Below are positions 1,363 through 64,000 of a stretch of DNA of 64,000 nucleotides, piece after piece (position 1 is the stretch's first letter; every line of letters starts with the position of its first letter). The notes under the pieces were generated by a model. The model was not told the origin of the DNA, did no database searches, and saw only the letters and a program-made list of their open reading frames with translations. A program made the position numbers and the translations under genes. The stretch is taken from positions 581,818 through 645,817 of the forward strand of contig JAZKCZ010000002.1 of NCBI GenBank assembly GCA_040387835.1. The letters run 5' to 3'. The stretch comes from Myxococcota bacterium (lineage in GTDB: Bacteria; Myxococcota; UBA727; JABDBI01).

Positions 1363-3144
1363 ATGGGCCAAATACAAATATTAAACGAAATTATTGCCAA
1401 TCAAATTGCAGCGGGCGAAGTGGTCGAGCGGCCAGCGTCCATCGTGAAAGAATTAATCGAAAACGCTTTAGACGCAGGTGCAACCCAAATTGATCTGCAC
1501 ATCATCGAAGGTGGCATCGCCAAGCTGGTTATCACCGACAACGGCTGCGGCATGGCGCCAGATGATGCCGTTTTGTGCTTTTCCAGATACGCCACCAGCA
1601 AACTTCGATCCATGAGCGATTTCGCCACCCTGAATTCATTCGGCTTCAGAGGCGAAGCCCTAGCCTCCATCGCATCCGTCAGCCGCATGAGTCTCACCAC
1701 CAGACAAGCGGATACAGTGCTCGCGACTAAAGTGGTCGTTGAAGGCGGTCGTATCTTAGAAGTAACCGAAGCCGGCGCACCTGTAGGCACACGCATTGAA
1801 GTCGAATCGCTCTTTTACAACACCCCGGCGCGCTTGAAATTTTTGAAAAGCCCACGTTCAGAAGCCAGCGCCATCGAAACCATTATGCGCCAAGCTGCGC
1901 TTTCCAAGCCGGCAGTGGGCTTTAGACTGCAAATCGACGCCACCACTAAGCTGGATGTTCGGCAAGCGCCAAGCGAAGCTCGCCAATTCGAGCGCGCAAT
2001 CTACTGCTTAGGCGAAGATACACGTGGATATTTATACCCCATCGATTTAAAAACCGACTTTCTAAGACTATCTGGCTATGTGGCCGCCCCATTGGCAACA
2101 CGCAAAGATAGCCTAGGGCTATACGTCTATGTGAATGGCCGTTTTGTGAAAGACAAACAGCTGGTTCAAGCCATTCGTGTTGCGTATAGAACCATCTTGG
2201 AAATCGGCCGCCACCCCATTGGTGCAATCAACATTGAAGTCGACCCTGAGGTGGTAGACGTCAACGTGCACCCGCAAAAGCTGGAAGTGAGATTCTCAGA
2301 ACCATCGAGAGTACAAAGCCACCTAATCCGCCTTCTAAGCGATTTTCTATCAACCACACCTTGGTTAAATTCCTACCGGGACCTCACCCCCAGCCCCTCT
2401 CCAGAATCTGGAGAGGGGAGAAGCTGGGCTTTAAGTCCCTCTCCACTTGGTGGAGAGGGATTTAGGGTGAGGCTACCCTCTCCCGATTTTGGCGAGCCAA
2501 AATCTCCCTCTCCCACAAGTGGGAGAGGGTATTACGTTCAGCATGGGCTGGGTGGCGCGGAGCGCTACACAGACCTTCGAGTGGTGGGGCAGATTGATTC
2601 TACCTATCTTCTTCTAGAAGGCGCGCGTTCTATGATCGTTTTGGATCAGCATGCAGCGCATGAACGGGTCGTATTCGAACGCGTCTGCGCACAAACCAAA
2701 CAAAACGGTGTTTCCTCTCAAGCTTTACTATTTCCTGTCTCCATCACGCTTTCTCCCGGGGATATGCAGACGCTGATCGAAAAGAAAGATGTCTTTTTGC
2801 CCTACGGCTTCGAAATCGAGCCCTTTGGCGATCACCAAGCGATCGTCAAAACCACTCCCGCAGGCCTTAAGTCGGAGTATGCCGAGACGATCATTAAGGA
2901 CACCCTGTCCGATTTACGAAACGCCGACCGCCCAGATGCGTTGCAAGAGTTCTCCGATCACATCTGCGCACAAATCGCTTGTCACACTTCCATCAGAGCC
3001 GGACAGCGCCTAGATAATTCAGAAATCCTAGCCCTATTAGAACAACTTGACGTTATCGACTACGCCGCGCACTGCCCACACGGACGCCCGGTAGTACGAG
3101 CGATACCTTTCACCGAGATCGCTCAATGGTTTCACAGGACTTAA
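1363..3144 (+). CDS. mutL: DNA mismatch repair protein MutL, with a 50-aa in-frame insertion in the linker
   Basis: N-terminal GHKL ATPase motifs (NQIAAGEVVERPASIVKELIENALDAGA, ITDNGCGM) and a C-terminal dimerisation domain. A miaA gene overlaps the 3' end, the classic mutL-miaA arrangement. Confidence 0.9.
   Translation: MGQIQILNEIIANQIAAGEVVERPASIVKELIENALDAGATQIDLHIIEGGIAKLVITDNGCGMAPDDAVLCFSRYATSKLRSMSDFATLNSFGFRGEALASIASVSRMSLTTRQADTVLATKVVVEGGRILEVTEAGAPVGTRIEVESLFYNTPARLKFLKSPRSEASAIETIMRQAALSKPAVGFRLQIDATTKLDVRQAPSEARQFERAIYCLGEDTRGYLYPIDLKTDFLRLSGYVAAPLATRKDSLGLYVYVNGRFVKDKQLVQAIRVAYRTILEIGRHPIGAINIEVDPEVVDVNVHPQKLEVRFSEPSRVQSHLIRLLSDFLSTTPWLNSYRDLTPSPSPESGEGRSWALSPSPLGGEGFRVRLPSPDFGEPKSPSPTSGRGYYVQHGLGGAERYTDLRVVGQIDSTYLLLEGARSMIVLDQHAAHERVVFERVCAQTKQNGVSSQALLFPVSITLSPGDMQTLIEKKDVFLPYGFEIEPFGDHQAIVKTTPAGLKSEYAETIIKDTLSDLRNADRPDALQEFSDHICAQIACHTSIRAGQRLDNSEILALLEQLDVIDYAAHCPHGRPVVRAIPFTEIAQWFHRT
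2382..2530. repeat. cluster of 3-4 palindromic units (CCCTCTCCAG-N3-CTGGAGAGGG type plus ATTTAGGGTGAGG), inserted in-frame in mutL
   Basis: Palindromes at 2394-2418 (cccctctccag aat ctggagagggg), 2437-2459 (ccctctccacttggtggagaggg, followed by atttagggtgagg at 2460-2472), 2485-2504 (gattttggc ga gccaaaatc) and 2506-2529 (ccctctccc acaagt gggagaggg). Translated in the mutL frame as PSPSPESGEGRSWALSPSPLGGEGFRVRLPSPDFGEPKSPSPTSGRG. Confidence 0.8.
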
Positions 3145-9091: not shown

Positions 9092-9691
9092 ATGTACAGC
9101 CTGATTCAAAAACCAGCCCCTGATTTTAATGCCGAAGCTGTGATGGCTAACGGTGAATTTTCAAAAATTTCGCTTTCTAGCTTTAAAGACAAAAAATATG
9201 TCTGCTTATTTTTCTACCCACTAGATTTCACTTTCGTATGCCCATCTGAGATCATTTCATTTTCTCACCGCGCAAAAGATTTTGAAGCGCGCCAAACCCA
9301 AATTTTAGGTGTATCGGTTGATTCCAAATTTAGCCATTACGCCTGGAGACAAACGCCCGTGGACAACGGCGGAATTGGTGCGATTGAATTCCCGTTAATT
9401 TCCGACATCACCAAGGAAATTGCTCGTGATTATGGCGTACTAGTTGAAGATGCAGTCGCTTTGCGCGGAACATTCTTAATCGATATGGCTGGCGTTGTCC
9501 GTCACGCAACTTTGAACGATCTGCCACTGGGCCGAAATGTTGATGAAACCCTTCGCATGATCGATGCTTTGCAACACACTGAAAAATATGGCGAAGTATG
9601 TCCAGCAGGCTGGAGAAAAGGTGATACCGCGATGAAGGCTAATACAGCCGGCGTAGCATCCTATCTGAAAGAAAACGCTGCAAACCTATAA
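9092..9691 (+). CDS. ahpC: typical 2-Cys peroxiredoxin (AhpC/Prx1 family)
   Basis: Peroxidatic FTFVCPSEI and resolving VCPAGW motifs. 199 aa. Confidence 0.85.
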   Translation: MYSLIQKPAPDFNAEAVMANGEFSKISLSSFKDKKYVCLFFYPLDFTFVCPSEIISFSHRAKDFEARQTQILGVSVDSKFSHYAWRQTPVDNGGIGAIEFPLISDITKEIARDYGVLVEDAVALRGTFLIDMAGVVRHATLNDLPLGRNVDETLRMIDALQHTEKYGEVCPAGWRKGDTAMKANTAGVASYLKENAANL

Positions 9692-9709
9692 AAGCTAGGT
9701 TTCCAAAGT

Positions 9710-9752
9710 CCCCCTCCAGATCCTGGAGAGGGATTTAGGGTGAGGTCCCCTC
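9710..9752. repeat. palindromic element copy (ccccctccag atc ctggagaggg + atttagggtgagg) between convergent genes; possible bidirectional terminator
   Basis: Perfect 10-bp inverted repeat at 9710-9732 followed by atttagggtgaggtcccctc. Sits exactly between the ahpC stop (9691) and the stop of the minus-strand gene (9753). Confidence 0.75.
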
Positions 9753-10388
9753 TTAGCTGTTGCTTGATGCAGCTGGTGCACTAACGCCACCTTCTACCAC
9801 AACATTCACAGGAACAGCCACTGGAGCGCCACCACCTGGTGTTACAGGATTTGCAGGAGCTGCGGGTTCAGCGGGTGTTGCAGGTGTTGGGCTCGGTGCA
9901 GCGCCTGGGCCTACTGGAGCAGCGGGTGCTACAGGTCCTGGCGTCAAGGATACGCCGCCAGCTGGCATTGGAGCGATTGCTGAGTCTTTAGACACAATCG
10001 CGCCTTTAGCAGCAACTTCACCTTTGGAAGCCACTTGGGATTGTGATGAAACTTGCTGAGCTTTCGATTCGTGATGAAACAGAGCTTCAATTTTGCTGCC
10101 TAGATCTTGAAACGCAGCTTGAATAGCATGTAGATGAGGATGAGACACCTTCACTTCTACAGTTCCTTGCATTTGAGCTGAACCAGCGGCCATAGGAGCC
10201 ACAGGCGATTTCATCGCTTGCATCGGTGATTTAGGTTCAAAATGATCTTTAGCCGCAACTTTGCTTTCGAGTTTGGCTTCTGCTTTCGCAGGGGCAGCTT
10301 GTGTCGCAACTTGGCTTGCGCCTTTTGCAGCTTCCTGTGCAACTACAGTTTGGGATTTTGCAGGGATTACCATATCTTTTCCGCCCAT
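9753..10388 (-). CDS. low-complexity Ala/Pro/Gln/Lys-rich protein (hypothetical), paralog of the downstream gene
   Basis: 211-aa ORF starting MGGKDM. Strong RBS (AGGAGATAAAGAAC then ATG). Pro/Ala-rich C-terminus. Shares the MGG start and an A/K/Q/T/S-rich composition with 10511..10900. Confidence 0.55.
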   Translation of the reverse strand: MGGKDMVIPAKSQTVVAQEAAKGASQVATQAAPAKAEAKLESKVAAKDHFEPKSPMQAMKSPVAPMAAGSAQMQGTVEVKVSHPHLHAIQAAFQDLGSKIEALFHHESKAQQVSSQSQVASKGEVAAKGAIVSKDSAIAPMPAGGVSLTPGPVAPAAPVGPGAAPSPTPATPAEPAAPANPVTPGGGAPVAVPVNVVVEGGVSAPAASSNS

Positions 10389-10510: not shown

Positions 10511-10900
10511 CTACTTCTTAGCTACAAAAGTAGGAACTTGTTGGGCAGCTTGTTGCACAACGGATTGAGCTTGGCTTTGGCTTTGGCCTTTAGCTTCGCT
10601 CTTAGCAGCTGGAGCTGCAGTACCGCAAGACTTAGCAGCTACTGTTTGTGATTGTGTTTGTGTTTGACCTTTAGCAGCTGGCACAGTTTGAGCTTGTGAC
10701 TGTGTTTGGCCTTTTGCACATGGAACTTCAGTCATTTTGCTAGCTGATTTAGGAGCAGCCAATACGTCGATTGGGATCGCGCCTTTAGCAGGAGCTGTTT
10801 GGCACTGTGATTGTGTTTGACCCTTAGCTGCAGGTACTGGTACCTGTTGTTGAGCTTGGGTTTGTGTTTGGCTTTTGCTTGCTGGTGTTAATCCGCCCAT
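10511..10900 (-). CDS. low-complexity repeat protein with AKGQTQSQ-type repeats (hypothetical)
   Basis: 129 aa, starts MGGLTPASKSQTQTQ. RBS AAGAGG. About 15-aa imperfect tandem repeats (PAAKGQTQSQCQTA, CAKGQTQSQAQTV, AAKGQTQTQSQTV). Confidence 0.55.
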   Translation of the reverse strand: MGGLTPASKSQTQTQAQQQVPVPAAKGQTQSQCQTAPAKGAIPIDVLAAPKSASKMTEVPCAKGQTQSQAQTVPAAKGQTQTQSQTVAAKSCGTAAPAAKSEAKGQSQSQAQSVVQQAAQQVPTFVAKK

Positions 10901-50919: not shown

Positions 50920-53900
50920 ATTTTATCGCTCCATAAATGACCTAAAGGGGCCCGATAGCTTTGGGGTTGAGGCTGAAAGGCGCCTTCCACCGCGGTAGTC
51001 CAAACATTGCCCGCAAAATCGAGCGGATAAGTAGTGGGCAACGGCCCGCCGGTAATCTTAGAAGCTGTTACTGGAGCACAGTTGCTGTACGTCGGCGATG
51101 CACAATCGATGAATTCAGCGGTCGTACACTGATTGGCAGAGGCATTTGTATTAAAGGTGATTGTGCCTGAATTATTCACTGTTGCCGTTCCACAAATTCC
51201 GGTCCCCGAACAAAGACCAGTCCCGTCTGACGTATAGGCAATCGTCGGACACATATCCACATAACTAACAGCTAAACCAGGATTCCCCACAGCAGGCGAC
51301 TGACTTGGGCTCGTGTACTGAATAGCAGGCGAAATCGAATTAATCTGGCTCTGCCAATTGGTTCCCCTGTCCCCAAGCCATTCATTAACGCCGGAATTTA
51401 CCAAAGCGAACAGGCCTATATTATCTCTAAAAAGACTATTGCTCAGACTCGAGTTCGTACCTTCATCAAACACGCCCCCTCCGCCTCGATTGAGCCCGGC
51501 GTTACCGATATAAGTATTATTCATTAAGACATTGTTTGTCGAACCAGATGGCTTGGCAAGATAGATTCCGCCCCCGCCATAACTGGCCCGATTGGCAGCA
51601 AGCACGGAGCTCACCACTGTCAAAGTCTGACTATTGGTATAAATACCCCCACCGTTCATGAAGGCTTGGTTGGCGTTGAATTTGGACGCAAATATCTGCA
51701 AGGGCGCACTGCCGGTGGATGCAACCGCACCGCCATTTTGCAACTGACCTATTGGATACGGCCGAATACAATTACCGCCCTGTATCGGACAAGTTAACTC
51801 ATCTGAGCAGGTGCCACCGGCAGCACAAAGCGCGGTGCTTGGAACTTGGCAAGTCTTGCCGGAGCTAGTCGACACACAATTCATCCCGCTTGGGCAATCC
51901 GTGTTGATGTTGCAGGTGTAGGTACAAACACCACCGGCAGCTGGACAAGTCAAACCGAGAGGGCAGCTACCCTCGCTTGTGCAAGTATAGGCGCACGTTC
52001 CGCCACCCGCAGGACAGGTCATGCCGCCCGGGCAACTTCCGTTATTATTGCAAGTATAATAGCAGGTGCCCCCATTAGCAGGGCAGGTCATGCCGTCTGG
52101 ACAACTGCCATCCTTAAGGCATGAGGGGGTAGCAACGCAGACACCTCCTTCGCTCGGGCAATAAGTACCAAAAGGACAATTGTTCCCCCCCGGCGTACAA
52201 ACTGGATTGATTGTGCAATTGCCGCCGCTAGTAGGGCAGGTCATGCCAACCGGGCATGACCCATTGACACACGGTGCGGTACAATCCCCTCCACCTTGAG
52301 GACAGAGCATGCCCGTAGGGCAAGAGCCGCCTGCGCTGCACACAGGCGTACAAGCCCCACCTGCTGCAGGGCAAGTCATCCCAATGGGGCAACTTCCTCC
52401 TGTGTTACAAGCAGGAATACCAAAACATGCCCCTCCTCCCGTCGGACAAATCATGCCTTGAGGGCAACGTGATTGGTTTCCGATACCACACAATGGCCAG
52501 ACATAAGGGACCTTCGAAAATCCATTACCATAAAACACGACCCGCTCGATTGTGCTGGTCGTGCCCGAAGAGGACGTATGACTAATCGCACCACCTTGAG
52601 TACTCGCTGAATTGCGAGAGATATACGAATCTTGAAGCGTCATGACGCCCGCATTTCGAATGGCGCCGCCATCTGCAGCCGTCTGGTTACCAACAATGCG
52701 CAAATTGCGTAAAATGGCATTGGCATTCGAGTTGACCACGACAGCACTGTCCGCACCATTTTGCAGTTGAAATCCATCAATAATTATCGAAACCGTCGGC
52801 GGCGAGGCAGCGCCGGCGGTTCCCAAAAGAAAGGTTGAACCGGTAGAGTTTCCTAGAATGGTGCCACTGAATCCAGCTCTCCCTAACGGCGCCGGATTCG
52901 TCTGTCCCGGTGCTGGAGAAGCAATTAAATTATCCGTGCGGTCGTAGATAGTTTGCTCAGTTCCCGAGAATCCCCCATAAATCGCAATGGGCGTAGTTAG
53001 CGGAATCGGTAGGGTTTCAGCGGTGGTAGAAACACCATTTTCCACCCAGATGCCGTAGCCGCATGGACAAATACTGCCCCGATTATCCTTCCCTGTTGCC
53101 GGCGCAGGCATCCAATAATTTGGGCTGGCCAGCGCGCTGGTCGGGCATGTCTGCGTCGACGTAGGATGAGGAGCAGAAAGAACGGTTAAGGCAGAGGCGA
53201 TTGAGCCAACAGTATTGTTAAAATTTTCACCCGTGCCACTGCTACCGTAATCGACAAAGGCGGCACAAACTTCGGTACAATGATTACTACAATGGCCTGG
53301 CTGGCCATTTCCTTTACACGAGTTTGTTTGAGCGCAATTTGTATCCGGCGTGCCATTTGCTTTAAGCGGAACACAAAGTGTAGCACCCGTTGGACACCCC
53401 CAACCATTAGGGCAGTTAGGGCAGGTTTTCCCTATGGTACCCTCATCGCAAGTCTCACCCGAACCAACATAACCATCACCACAATGCGAACTTTGGCAAA
53501 ACCCGCCTATACATGAAAAGCTATCTGGGCAAGGTACTGTGCTACTACAAGCGGAATGTGTACACGCACCAGAGACACAACTACTCCCCGTTGGGCAAAG
53601 GACAGAAGCACCGCAAGCCTGGGGCTTTTGGCATTGGTTCTTCTCGCACGTCTCCCCGGAAGGGCAGTTTGCGTCAACACAGGCGAGCTCGCATCTACCC
53701 TCGAAACAAGTATAGTTTCCCTCGGTAGGACAATCGCTCTGCTGACTACACCCTGCAAATCTGCATGTCCCTTGTGGAGGGTTGTTACCCGCCAAGCAAG
53801 TTAGGCCCGCGGGGCAAGTGGATGACGTTGTACTACAACTGATCTCACAAATATTTACCAGACTGGATTGGGCTTCAACGCTCGAACAGGTGCCAGTAAC

Positions 53901-63000: not shown

Positions 63001-64000
63001 CGGCGAAGTCGTCGGCTTTGCCATTGGCGGGCCGCTCGAGCATTCTAAAGTAGACGGCCCGGTGCATGATCCCATGCGTGGGCTCGGCAATACTTTTTAC
63101 TCAACCGACATTGTGATTCATGAATCGCTGCGCGGTAAAGGCGTTGGTTACCATTTAAAAGCAGCGCAAATCGAAGCCGCAAAAAAACTAGGCTACGCCT
63201 ACATGAGCGGCCGCAACCGCGTGGGCGCGACGTCTGAAATCCAGCGCATCAACAAAAGCTTCGGCGCCTATACAGTGGCCGTATACGACCACCAATACGG
63301 CAGCGATGCACAAGCACTCTACTATCGCATCCCCCTCCTAAGACCAGCCCTCCCCTCTCCCCTCTCCAGTTCCTGGAGAGGGGCCGGGGGTGAGGTCAAC
63401 TGGGCCGACTCAATCCAAGCCCCCCTAGGAAAACACTCCCCCGAAATCCTAGCCGACATTCAAAAAGGCATCTTCACCACGGCCGTCGGCACCAAGCTAA
63501 CGCTTTCCAATTTCATCACCCCTGACATGGTGCGCTACACCGAACTTTTGCGCCATTTGATGCCTAGATCATGCAAGCATCTCTACTTCACCTCTGGCCG
63601 AGATGAGATGGTAGACAAGGGTCTACGCTCGCTCAAAGTCAGCCGCCCCGGCGCCGAAATTGCCATCGGTCTCAAAGGTCAATATCTAGGCCACACCACC
63701 TGCTCTGCCAGAAGCCTAACCGACCCGGGCGATTATCAAAAACCATTCAGCTGGTTCGACTGGCCACTCGCCGAAACGGCAGAAGACATCGAAGCCTTAA
63801 TCACGGAGCACGGCGCCGATAAAATATTCGGCATCGTCATCGAACTCATGGGCGAAATGACCGGTAAAGTCATATCCCCAGATTTGCTCAGACGATTAAG
63901 CGATATTCGTGAAAAGACTGGCATCCCACTCGTGTTCGTCGAAACAGCTTCCAGCTTAGGCCGAAGCGGCGAAAGTTTATTCCTCAGCGACTCGCTCCCC
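60062..64000 (+). CDS. giant multidomain fusion protein (ALDH / class-III aminotransferase / GNAT / second aminotransferase-like domain), 3' end beyond the window
   Basis: Open frame of at least 1313 codons with no stop. N-terminal AstD-like succinylglutamate-semialdehyde dehydrogenase (VLGPYNFPAHL...ILALEMGGKN...FQSAGQRCTA...APFGGVGKSGNHRP). AT-III domain (IIAFEGSFHGRT, DEVQTGFG). GNAT (LRGKGVGYHLKAAQIEAAKKLGY). Then FTSGRDEMVDKG...VFVETASSLGRSGE. Confidence 0.7.
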   Translation, partial: MGKGSFIGGVFVAGAGEIIRSQNPARAYETVFETNADISHVAKAVEAAEKALPIWRGLTQNERVLALKSVEAVFKKREEDLAQRITAEMGKIFTESLFEAKNVSGRVSLTAEEGLKRVATEHPPGAGETRYHAQGIMAVLGPYNFPAHLMNSHIIPALMTGNTIVAKPSELCPGVGELYAECFEEAGLPAGVFNLIQGRGDIGKALVTHPRIRGVLFTGSYQTGRALTEMLLDHPHKILALEMGGKNTAVVLDDADLYQCLVEISQGAFQSAGQRCTATSRVLIDRQVAPKLIPALIRMAKEFVPADPTNTDTVLGPMAGRAALERYLSLLEKVRESAGCKVLLEAQVLPGGAFVTPSVYQVEQFVDIELFGPHFDIQLFDGLDEAIKLVNQSDYGLSNSIFTRSETSFERFYQETYSGVLNWNRSTNGLSGKAPFGGVGKSGNHRPAGIDAVRNATYPVMVQSLPFGHAEPLAPLALKFKSEQIGLSETLEDLIKSHEQEFAAQRYRYFDQPHVPKDIRLPASEVMLQRLYQGDLVPREKKEPIVDLFASKGPYLVSIDEEPLVIFDAASQIASLGLGFSAGPFQKALDEGQLTESLLSNAADISGDSEAYEKLLLSRADKSLNYVSFTTSGAAANEKAFDLCRLNGPGGKRIIAFEGSFHGRTMMALHATYNPEKRKGFELPGYEVTFLPFGSLDGLKEALAKGDMCCVIVEPVQCEGGDNFASIDFFRGVRQITRDMGVPMVVDEVQTGFGLFGPFFYHTAFGLENGPDCVTLAKKAQLGVVLSTWPDTRPEHPHQIQIQKGLIQAKAVLEAPFQDLERQIADRLAKLHEAFPMLVSNPRNTGYAFAFNMPTPAQANHVVNQRFSRGFMVYIAGVQTLRFRANIDTTLKEIDFLFDALHGALKGTAPAKTNVVSQAALPLMGGISIEQFTPDQWSYYANNIEALEHAAYEPERRDSMAYLESWLKQPKSVGLIAKQRGEVVGFAIGGPLEHSKVDGPVHDPMRGLGNTFYSTDIVIHESLRGKGVGYHLKAAQIEAAKKLGYAYMSGRNRVGATSEIQRINKSFGAYTVAVYDHQYGSDAQALYYRIPLLRPALPSPLSSSWRGAGGEVNWADSIQAPLGKHSPEILADIQKGIFTTAVGTKLTLSNFITPDMVRYTELLRHLMPRSCKHLYFTSGRDEMVDKGLRSLKVSRPGAEIAIGLKGQYLGHTTCSARSLTDPGDYQKPFSWFDWPLAETAEDIEALITEHGADKIFGIVIELMGEMTGKVISPDLLRRLSDIREKTGIPLVFVETASSLGRSGESLFLSDSLP
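63352..63396. repeat. palindromic element copy (cccctctccag ttc ctggagagggg + ccgggggtgaggtc), in-frame inside the giant ORF
   Basis: Perfect 11-bp inverted repeat at 63359-63383. Translated as PSPLSSSWRGAGGEV in an interdomain position. Confidence 0.75.

Follow-up and report, generated by a model that had tools for sequence, protein, structure and literature searches.

A three-arm repeat unit beside ahpC in a Myxococcota MAG, probably of the BoxC/PIT/TM_ECO family and most likely a passenger

BoxC, reported by Bachellier et al. in the 1990s, the PIT element of Hoyne & Maher (2000-2002) and TM_ECO are one and the same repeat (Holder et al. 2015, PMC4666352). Its published pattern is CCCTCNCCC-N3-6-GGGNGAGGG-N3-GGGNGAGGG, and the 23 copies present in E. 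coli K-12 are all intergenic; the second loop is of two types, TTA (type A) and CCG (type B), and inverted pairs made up of an A and a B copy are frequent in E. coli (PMC4666352). Oligonucleotides with the E. coli sequences formed a class II purine-motif intrastrand triplex in vitro, while no in vivo signal was obtained, and the TM loci were linked to local genome rearrangement (PMC4666352). According to Holder et al. (PMC4666352), who cite Hoyne & Maher on this point, PIT/BoxC has neither promoter nor terminator activity in E. coli. A role as a terminator or mRNA stabiliser was guessed for the same palindrome in the Enterobacter sp. 638 genome paper (PMC2869309). A second group of comparable sequences are the RAYT-mobilised REP/BIME/REPIN elements, GC-rich imperfect palindromes of 20-40 nt that are found mostly at gene 3' ends, often as inverted doublets, and that have likewise been proposed to be mRNA stabilisers or terminators (PMC3733652, PMC3116915).

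The 64-kb stretch of DNA analyzed here (64,000 nucleotides of a Myxococcota MAG; hereafter the window) carries at 9703-9752 a sequence that we consider, with a probability of about 0.75, to be one unit of the dispersed BoxC/PIT/TM_ECO repeat, a G/C-rich class II intrastrand triplex motif, and at this place most likely a passenger. The family itself is known, and what is new is a member in a Myxococcota MAG. The preliminary description of this DNA had presented 9710-9752 as a palindrome filling a 61-nt gap between two convergent genes, and on re-reading both the quoted sequence (ccccctccag-atc-ctggagaggg-atttagggtgagg-tcccctc) and the gap, which spans 9692-9752 between the ahpC stop (9691) and a minus-strand stop (9753), proved to be as claimed. 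Read out directly on the plus strand, this solitary three-arm repeat (unit C) starts at about 9703 with a 5' extension, CAAAGT, that is followed by the Y-arm (9710-9719), loop 1 (9720-9722), the R-arm (9723-9732), loop 2 of the form A-TTT-A (9733-9737) and a third arm, GGGTGAGG (9738-9745), after which comes the 3' tail TCCCCTC. The third arm, which had been overlooked, identifies the repeat family. The stem had been called perfect, yet nine of its ten pairs are Watson-Crick and one is a C/A mismatch on the plus strand, which corresponds to G.U in minus-strand RNA. In addition, AAAGT of the extension pairs with ATTT of loop 2. The same flanks recur in metagenome copies: the 5' flank is conserved in these and in cyanobacterial copies, and the 3' tail has the form TC(C/T)CC.

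The upstream neighbor of unit C is ahpC (9092..9691, plus strand), a peroxiredoxin gene with the Pfam domains AhpC-TSA and 1-cysPrx_C, the stop codon of which lies 11 nt ahead of the unit. On the other side, the stop codon of an orphan Ala/Pro-rich ORF of 211 aa (9753..10388, minus strand) directly abuts it. No homologue of this ORF was found among 1.84 billion representatives, but in its codon usage it resembles a gene (0.165 in frame, as compared with 0.12-0.20 for ahpC, tgt and an M61-like gene), so the placement of the element between convergent genes is probably right. A second orphan low-complexity ORF, with AKGQTQSQ-like tandem repeats of a 36-nt family, is found on the minus strand at 10511-10900. 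Both orphan ORFs begin with MGG, and both are missing from the syntenic relative L182 (GCA_023248545.1).

Searching the window with the 22-mer hairpin and allowing up to three mismatches gave four matches, compared with 0.00 expected from shuffles, and all GGAGAGGG and GGGTGAGG 8-mers of the 64 kb are confined to 2380-2530, 9706-9752 and 63352-63397. In the MutL ORF (1363..3144), the entire variable linker (2378-2532) consists of three repeat units that stand in both orientations and in frame. These are unit A' (2380..2421, minus strand), a type B unit with CTG in loop 2 and nine canonical triplets, unit B (2433..2474, plus strand), a type A unit with an A-TTT-A loop 2, and an atypical third unit (2476..2530, minus strand), which is composed of the hairpin CCCTCTCCCAC-AA-GTGGGAGAGGG at 2506-2529, a distant extra arm, CCCTCTCCC (2476-2484), and a small hairpin between this arm and the main one. 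Units A' and B form an inverted dimer that folds as single-stranded DNA with z = -6.3, and its arrangement, a type B unit on the minus strand followed by a type A unit on the plus strand, is that of the five E. coli pairs; one TM pair was also read directly in the hrpB-mrcB gap of E. coli. The protein encoded in the window reads ...DLTPSPSPESGEGRSWALSPSPLGGEGFRVRLPSPDFGEPKSPSPTSGRG... in the linker. In MutL orthologues at up to 69% identity the linkers are unrelated and mostly shorter, and a search outside the source for relatives closer than 69% MutL identity, which would allow an empty-site comparison, found none. A more distant MutL homologue (P0020) has GRG/GEG-type peptides in the same linker, and its sequence suggests an independent insertion. 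The remaining copy, unit D (63352..63397, plus strand), is a type B unit with CCG in loop 2 and lies in frame in the linker following a GNAT domain. The ORF in question runs on the plus strand from 60059 to the end of the window (64000) and encodes more than 1,313 aa, a fusion of aldehyde dehydrogenase, class-III aminotransferase and GNAT domains. A further repeat of another kind, a 42-nt direct repeat occurring seven times at a spacing of 66-153 nt and made of GGGCA/GCAGG-rich units, is present at 51924-52466 and suggests a repetitive protein-coding region. Units C and B are 88% identical, and this, together with the related copies in MutL and in the ORF at 63352-63397, bears out the earlier statement that the intergenic sequence and the in-frame ones are the same element.

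A comparison of the four window copies revealed three arms on one strand, namely a C-rich arm, CCCCTCTCC, its complement, GGAGAGGGG, and, 3 nt on, a purine arm, GGGGTGAGG, which is the mirror image of the second. The order of a pyrimidine arm, a purine arm and a second purine arm antiparallel to the first is that of class II polarity. In unit C, seven canonical triplets can be counted along with an eighth in which the duplex has a C/A mismatch; in A', B and D the number of canonical triplets is eight to nine, and the order of triplets in the window units (G*G-C, T*A-T, A*A-T) is that of E. coli TM1, TM2 and TM5. If the outer triplet is counted in, loop 2 is TTT for both C and B, CTG for A' and CCG for D. 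A covariance model was then built from eleven 36-nt E. coli copies only, and the whole window was searched with it, filters off. The model matched unit B with 28.8 bits (E 2.3e-5), unit D with 21.1 bits (E 0.0016), unit A' with 17.8 bits (E 0.01), 2506-2530 with 15.6 bits (E 0.03; hairpin part only) and unit C with 11.4 bits (E 0.34), the last match being full-length and, taken alone, marginal. The nine best matches all fall within the three element loci, and none elsewhere in the window exceeds 7.3 bits. The strict published pattern is matched by both E. coli control copies and by no window unit; the arms in the window have a 4+3+2 register, with A-T*T instead of C-G*G as the innermost triplet, and a relaxed pattern, in which an 8-nt core is allowed, matches A', B and D. 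Since only four of the at least 120 loci listed from other genomes match the strict pattern, we take it to describe the enterobacterial subfamily. In neither the window nor 16 related loci did any Rfam family attain its gathering score, and around the site itself there were chance-level matches only (E up to 10).

The history of the locus was examined with the help of L182, in which the gene order is guaA, RNase T, Vut_1, tgt, ahpC, the M61-like gene and a Na/H exchanger gene, with the M61-like gene starting 51 bp past ahpC. No hairpin follows ahpC in this relative, and not a single element 8-mer is found across its 21.7 kb. Since ahpC directly precedes the M61-like gene there, about 1.3 kb of the window (9692 to ~11005) form a lineage-specific segment, which contains unit C at its left edge and the two low-complexity ORFs. 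A short-read assembly made independently for this organism also breaks here: Logan contig SRR26324620_642186 (L001) ends at 9743, within the third arm of unit C, as is typical of a multi-copy repeat. We propose that in a single DNA strand the second purine arm, GGGTGAGG, would occupy the major groove of the hairpin and form G*G-C, A*A-T and T*A-T triplets there, and that unit C would have arrived by the family's own spreading process, for which a single-stranded DNA intermediate is plausible. It would have persisted because the gap is flanked by gene 3' ends on both sides and lacks a promoter, while in-frame copies would be retained in disordered linkers because the unit is open in most of its reading frames. 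The position at the edge of the lineage-specific segment would fit the published link between the motif and rearrangements (PMC4666352). We infer that unit C, at this locus, is most likely tolerated as a passenger where a rearrangement has left a junction, and is not a dedicated terminator.

To place the window units among those of other bacteria, 185,579 species' genomes were scanned for the exact pattern derived from the window, and the resulting loci, at least 120 in number, were assigned to groups from their record titles. The matches listed span more than ten phyla and include at least 34 loci in Chloroflexota, at least 34 in Cyanobacteria, at least 18 in Planctomycetota, at least 14 in Proteobacteria, at least four in Patescibacteria, at least three in Bacteroidota/Ignavibacteria and at least three in Acidobacteriota, with at least ten others (Armatimonadota, Elusimicrobia, Fibrobacteres, Desulfobulbaceae, Myxococcota, two actinobacterial records, Zixibacteria, Bdellovibrionota and one unclassified). 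The sole Streptomyces match listed (L073, Streptomyces chisholmiae) comes from a 393-bp contig with a coverage of 0.93 and may be contamination rather than an actinobacterial copy. The subfamily to which the window units belong, with the stem CTCCAG...CTGGAG, is not among the at least 120 loci listed; it was found in 57 metagenome contigs with a GC content of 0.39-0.71, in which the element is the sole sequence shared with the window. Most of these contigs originate from one sample, one protein of which is labelled "MAG: Myxococcaceae bacterium" at NCBI. A recurrent neighbor gene, e.g. a transposase or RAYT, was sought across 177 loci, and only common families (ABC transporters, TPR proteins) and a lineage-specific wHTH family emerged. 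Several arrangements of the unit other than the solitary one were also seen. Some Chloroflexota and Desulfobulbaceae MAGs have head-to-tail arrays of the three-arm unit, which could be mistaken for CRISPR arrays; those at L032:1-165 (45-nt spacing) and L070:2120-2210 (58-nt spacing) are regular, and in the one at L016:189-630 two units stand 126 nt apart. Complete four-arm palindromes of the order CCTCACCCC..CCCCTCTCC..GGAGAGGGG..GGGGTGAGG occur at L108:7771-7822 and in L003, L046, L054, L069, L086 and L103. Such a palindrome yields a three-arm unit on either strand. The common three-arm form looks like three quarters of it.

The 129 distinct copies among the matches listed were used as a covariation set, in which the counts take no account of shared ancestry. 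Four of the eight bases of the left arm were fixed by the search pattern, and the remaining ones read CCCT in 108 of the 129 unique copies listed. The stem pair beside loop 1 is always a standard one, yet it is variable (C-G in 92 copies, T-A in 24, A-T in 9 and G-C in 3), and the inner stem pairs covary across the set of 129. At the outer triplet position, 92 copies have C-G*G and 25 have T-A*A; at the inner one, 90 have C-G*G and 23 have T-A*T. All four combinations of outer and inner triplet are present (65, 16, 14 and 6 copies). The nominal p-values of about 1e-22 to 1e-27 overstate the case, since the copies are not independent; moreover, the pattern with which they were collected was itself derived from the window. 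We also considered an alternative Watson-Crick pairing between the third arm and the left arm. This reading leaves a mismatch in each of the three discriminating classes (16, 14 and 6 copies), whereas the triplet model leaves none, and the mirror (triplet) reading therefore fits better. As judged from these aligned copies, changes in the third arm accompany those in the hairpin as purine-motif triplet rules predict.

The preliminary description had also stated that the element occupies both coding and non-coding contexts, which holds for the window units and, beyond them, for copies in other genomes. Among the loci listed, in-frame copies in Pfam-supported proteins were found in a LeuRS editing domain (L167), a SufS-like class-V aminotransferase (L124), urease alpha (L121), Dus of a Nomurabacteria MAG (L009), DUF1385 (L145), ThuA (L105), AAA_25 (L173) and a radical-SAM protein (L053). 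By eye, the consensus of type B units has five open frames out of six and that of type A units three out of six. In the low-GC metagenome contigs, where ORFs were called crudely, 11 copies lie well within ORFs, 20 are intergenic and 12 are ambiguous. A multi-copy family of wHTH proteins (~190-260 aa; Pfam HTH_11/HTH_36) was noticed in the related 'Myxococcaceae' MAG and in metagenome contigs, with paralogues at L071:2752-3453, L152:2299-3006, L155:249-959, L168:115-762 and L178:415-1203 and in L179. In every paralogue seen, the repeat unit stands in frame directly after the HTH domain, although the paralogues share only 23-66% identity with one another and one of them reads the unit in another frame. 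This family may represent a hot spot of insertion or may be the element's cognate partner; none of its homologues is encoded in the 64-kb window. Taken together, these sequence comparisons would be compatible with a broader reading that we put forward tentatively and regard as possible, though rather doubtful, i.e. that the motif is pan-bacterial selfish DNA, the third arm of which is maintained because selection favors an intramolecular triplex, that it routinely colonizes conserved genes in frame in several phyla, in contrast to what is described for E. coli, and that the wHTH family could be its cognate partner. If this were true, the triplet-rule covariation would be the first comparative evidence of such a triplex structure in vivo.

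Apart from the passenger reading, it was considered whether unit C could be a functional bidirectional terminator or an mRNA-stabilizing 3' hairpin serving ahpC and the convergent ORF, as the preliminary description had supposed and as was guessed for the Enterobacter palindrome (PMC2869309). As RNA, the 47-nt unit is predicted to form a stable hairpin from either strand (-22.5 and -25.1 kcal/mol), the 69-nt gap folds with z = -2.6, and the stem is flanked by AAAG and ATTT, a weak symmetric A/T flank. However, a terminator scan requiring a stem-loop with at least five T in eight within 0-2 nt does not call the site, only three T follow the stem on either strand, and the tails, ATTTAGGG on the plus and ACTTTGGA on the minus strand, hold no T-tract. 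Moreover, the element is missing after ahpC in the syntenic relative, PIT/BoxC is reported to be without terminator activity in E. coli (Hoyne & Maher, as cited in PMC4666352), and a terminator role leaves the conserved third arm unexplained. The unit is also found in frame within essential genes (LeuRS, MutL, urease), where a terminator would be harmful and which argues against efficient termination. Counts of canonical terminators are close to chance in two of the three 20-kb segments of the window (27 vs 23.4 and 29 vs 25.4 expected), so that non-canonical signals might be used, and exceed expectation in the middle segment (44 vs 26.9); they neither help nor hurt the terminator idea.

The positions of copies elsewhere were also taken into account, for they avoid divergent gaps and often lie 0-20 nt past stop codons, which a 3'-end function would predict as well. 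In loci with a GC content of up to 0.56 and with crude ORF calls, 34 intergenic copies were compared with 237 baseline gaps. Tandem gaps accounted for 21 copies (145 in the baseline), convergent gaps for 11 (45) and divergent gaps for two (47; p = 0.056 for depletion). The enrichment at convergent gene ends, for which the preliminary description had proposed a genome-wide comparison, is visible as a trend (11/34 vs 45/237, odds ratio 2.0), but it is weak and not significant (p = 0.11). Within tandem gaps, the upstream stop is the nearer one for 16 of 25 copies (p = 0.23), and orientation relative to the genes is unbiased (11 same, 14 opposite). Copies thus favor gene 3' ends and avoid promoter-only gaps, which is true of many selfish repeats and requires no function. 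We regard a dedicated terminator or stabilizer as unlikely. The predicted RNA hairpin (~-22 to -25 kcal/mol) could nonetheless protect, incidentally, the 3' ends of transcripts that read into it.

A further explanation, that the sequence is a putative protein-binding site recognized by a nucleoid-associated protein, by gyrase as for REP, or by the wHTH protein of the lineage, and kept for chromosome organization or for its own mobilization, seems improbable to us. It would account for a conservation of the arms across phyla that far exceeds the needs of a triplex and for the recurrence of the unit after the HTH domain in wHTH paralogues that are 23-66% identical, but the window encodes no wHTH homologue, no neighboring gene shared between phyla was found in the 177 loci except frequent families such as ABC transporters, and a dimeric protein binding duplex DNA would not impose a mirror-repeat covariation. 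Finally, a chance GC-rich palindrome unrelated to other sequences, for which only its short length could speak, is refuted by the shuffle expectation in the window, by the hundreds of related copies elsewhere and by the recovery of the window loci with the E. coli-derived model, and we give it next to no credence.

In practical terms, unit C should be annotated as a repeat unit and not as a terminator, and the identity of the repeat accounts for the assembly break within it as well as for the unusual peptides, rich in Pro/Ser/Gly/Glu, of MutL and the large fusion protein. Three points may be new with respect to the literature searched: that a BoxC-type motif reaches far beyond Proteobacteria and Cyanobacteria, that it stands in frame in housekeeping genes, and that its third arm covaries by triplets, which would make the in vivo folding of bacterial triplex motifs testable by comparative genomics.

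When compared with known systems, unit C has in common with an intrinsic terminator a GC-rich hairpin just past stop codons, but it has no T/U run on either strand. REPs differ from the window repeat in that they lack a mirror third arm, and of the REP tags GTAG/CGTC none was found beside the hairpin of unit C or D, while CTAC is present only at 2373 and 2473, outside the hairpins of the MutL cluster. Rickettsia palindromic elements are said (Ogata et al. 2000) to be 100-150 bp long, restricted to Rickettsia, and located both between genes and in frame in conserved genes, where they are reportedly tolerated as surface or linker peptides. This family is named in PMC1779305 and PMC2267715. In behavior it is like the window repeat, but its sequence is unrelated and has no third purine arm, so that the two are not the same family. 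From BoxC/PIT/TM_ECO, the window units are distinguished by their 4+3+2 register, by A-T*T as the innermost triplet, by the CTCCAG...CTGGAG stem and by a Myxococcota host; in addition, A', B and D lie within ORFs and in frame, while for the E. coli copies intergenic positions alone are reported (PMC4666352). We consider the exclusively intergenic location to be a property of the E. coli copies and not a structural criterion. Common to BoxC/PIT/TM_ECO and the window units are the three-arm order, the core words CCCTCTCC / GGAGAGGG / GGGTGAGG, the order of triplets, the two types of loop 2 (A-TTT-A corresponding to TTA, and CTG or CCG to CCG), the inverted pairs of type A and type B units and a dispersed occurrence in both orientations.
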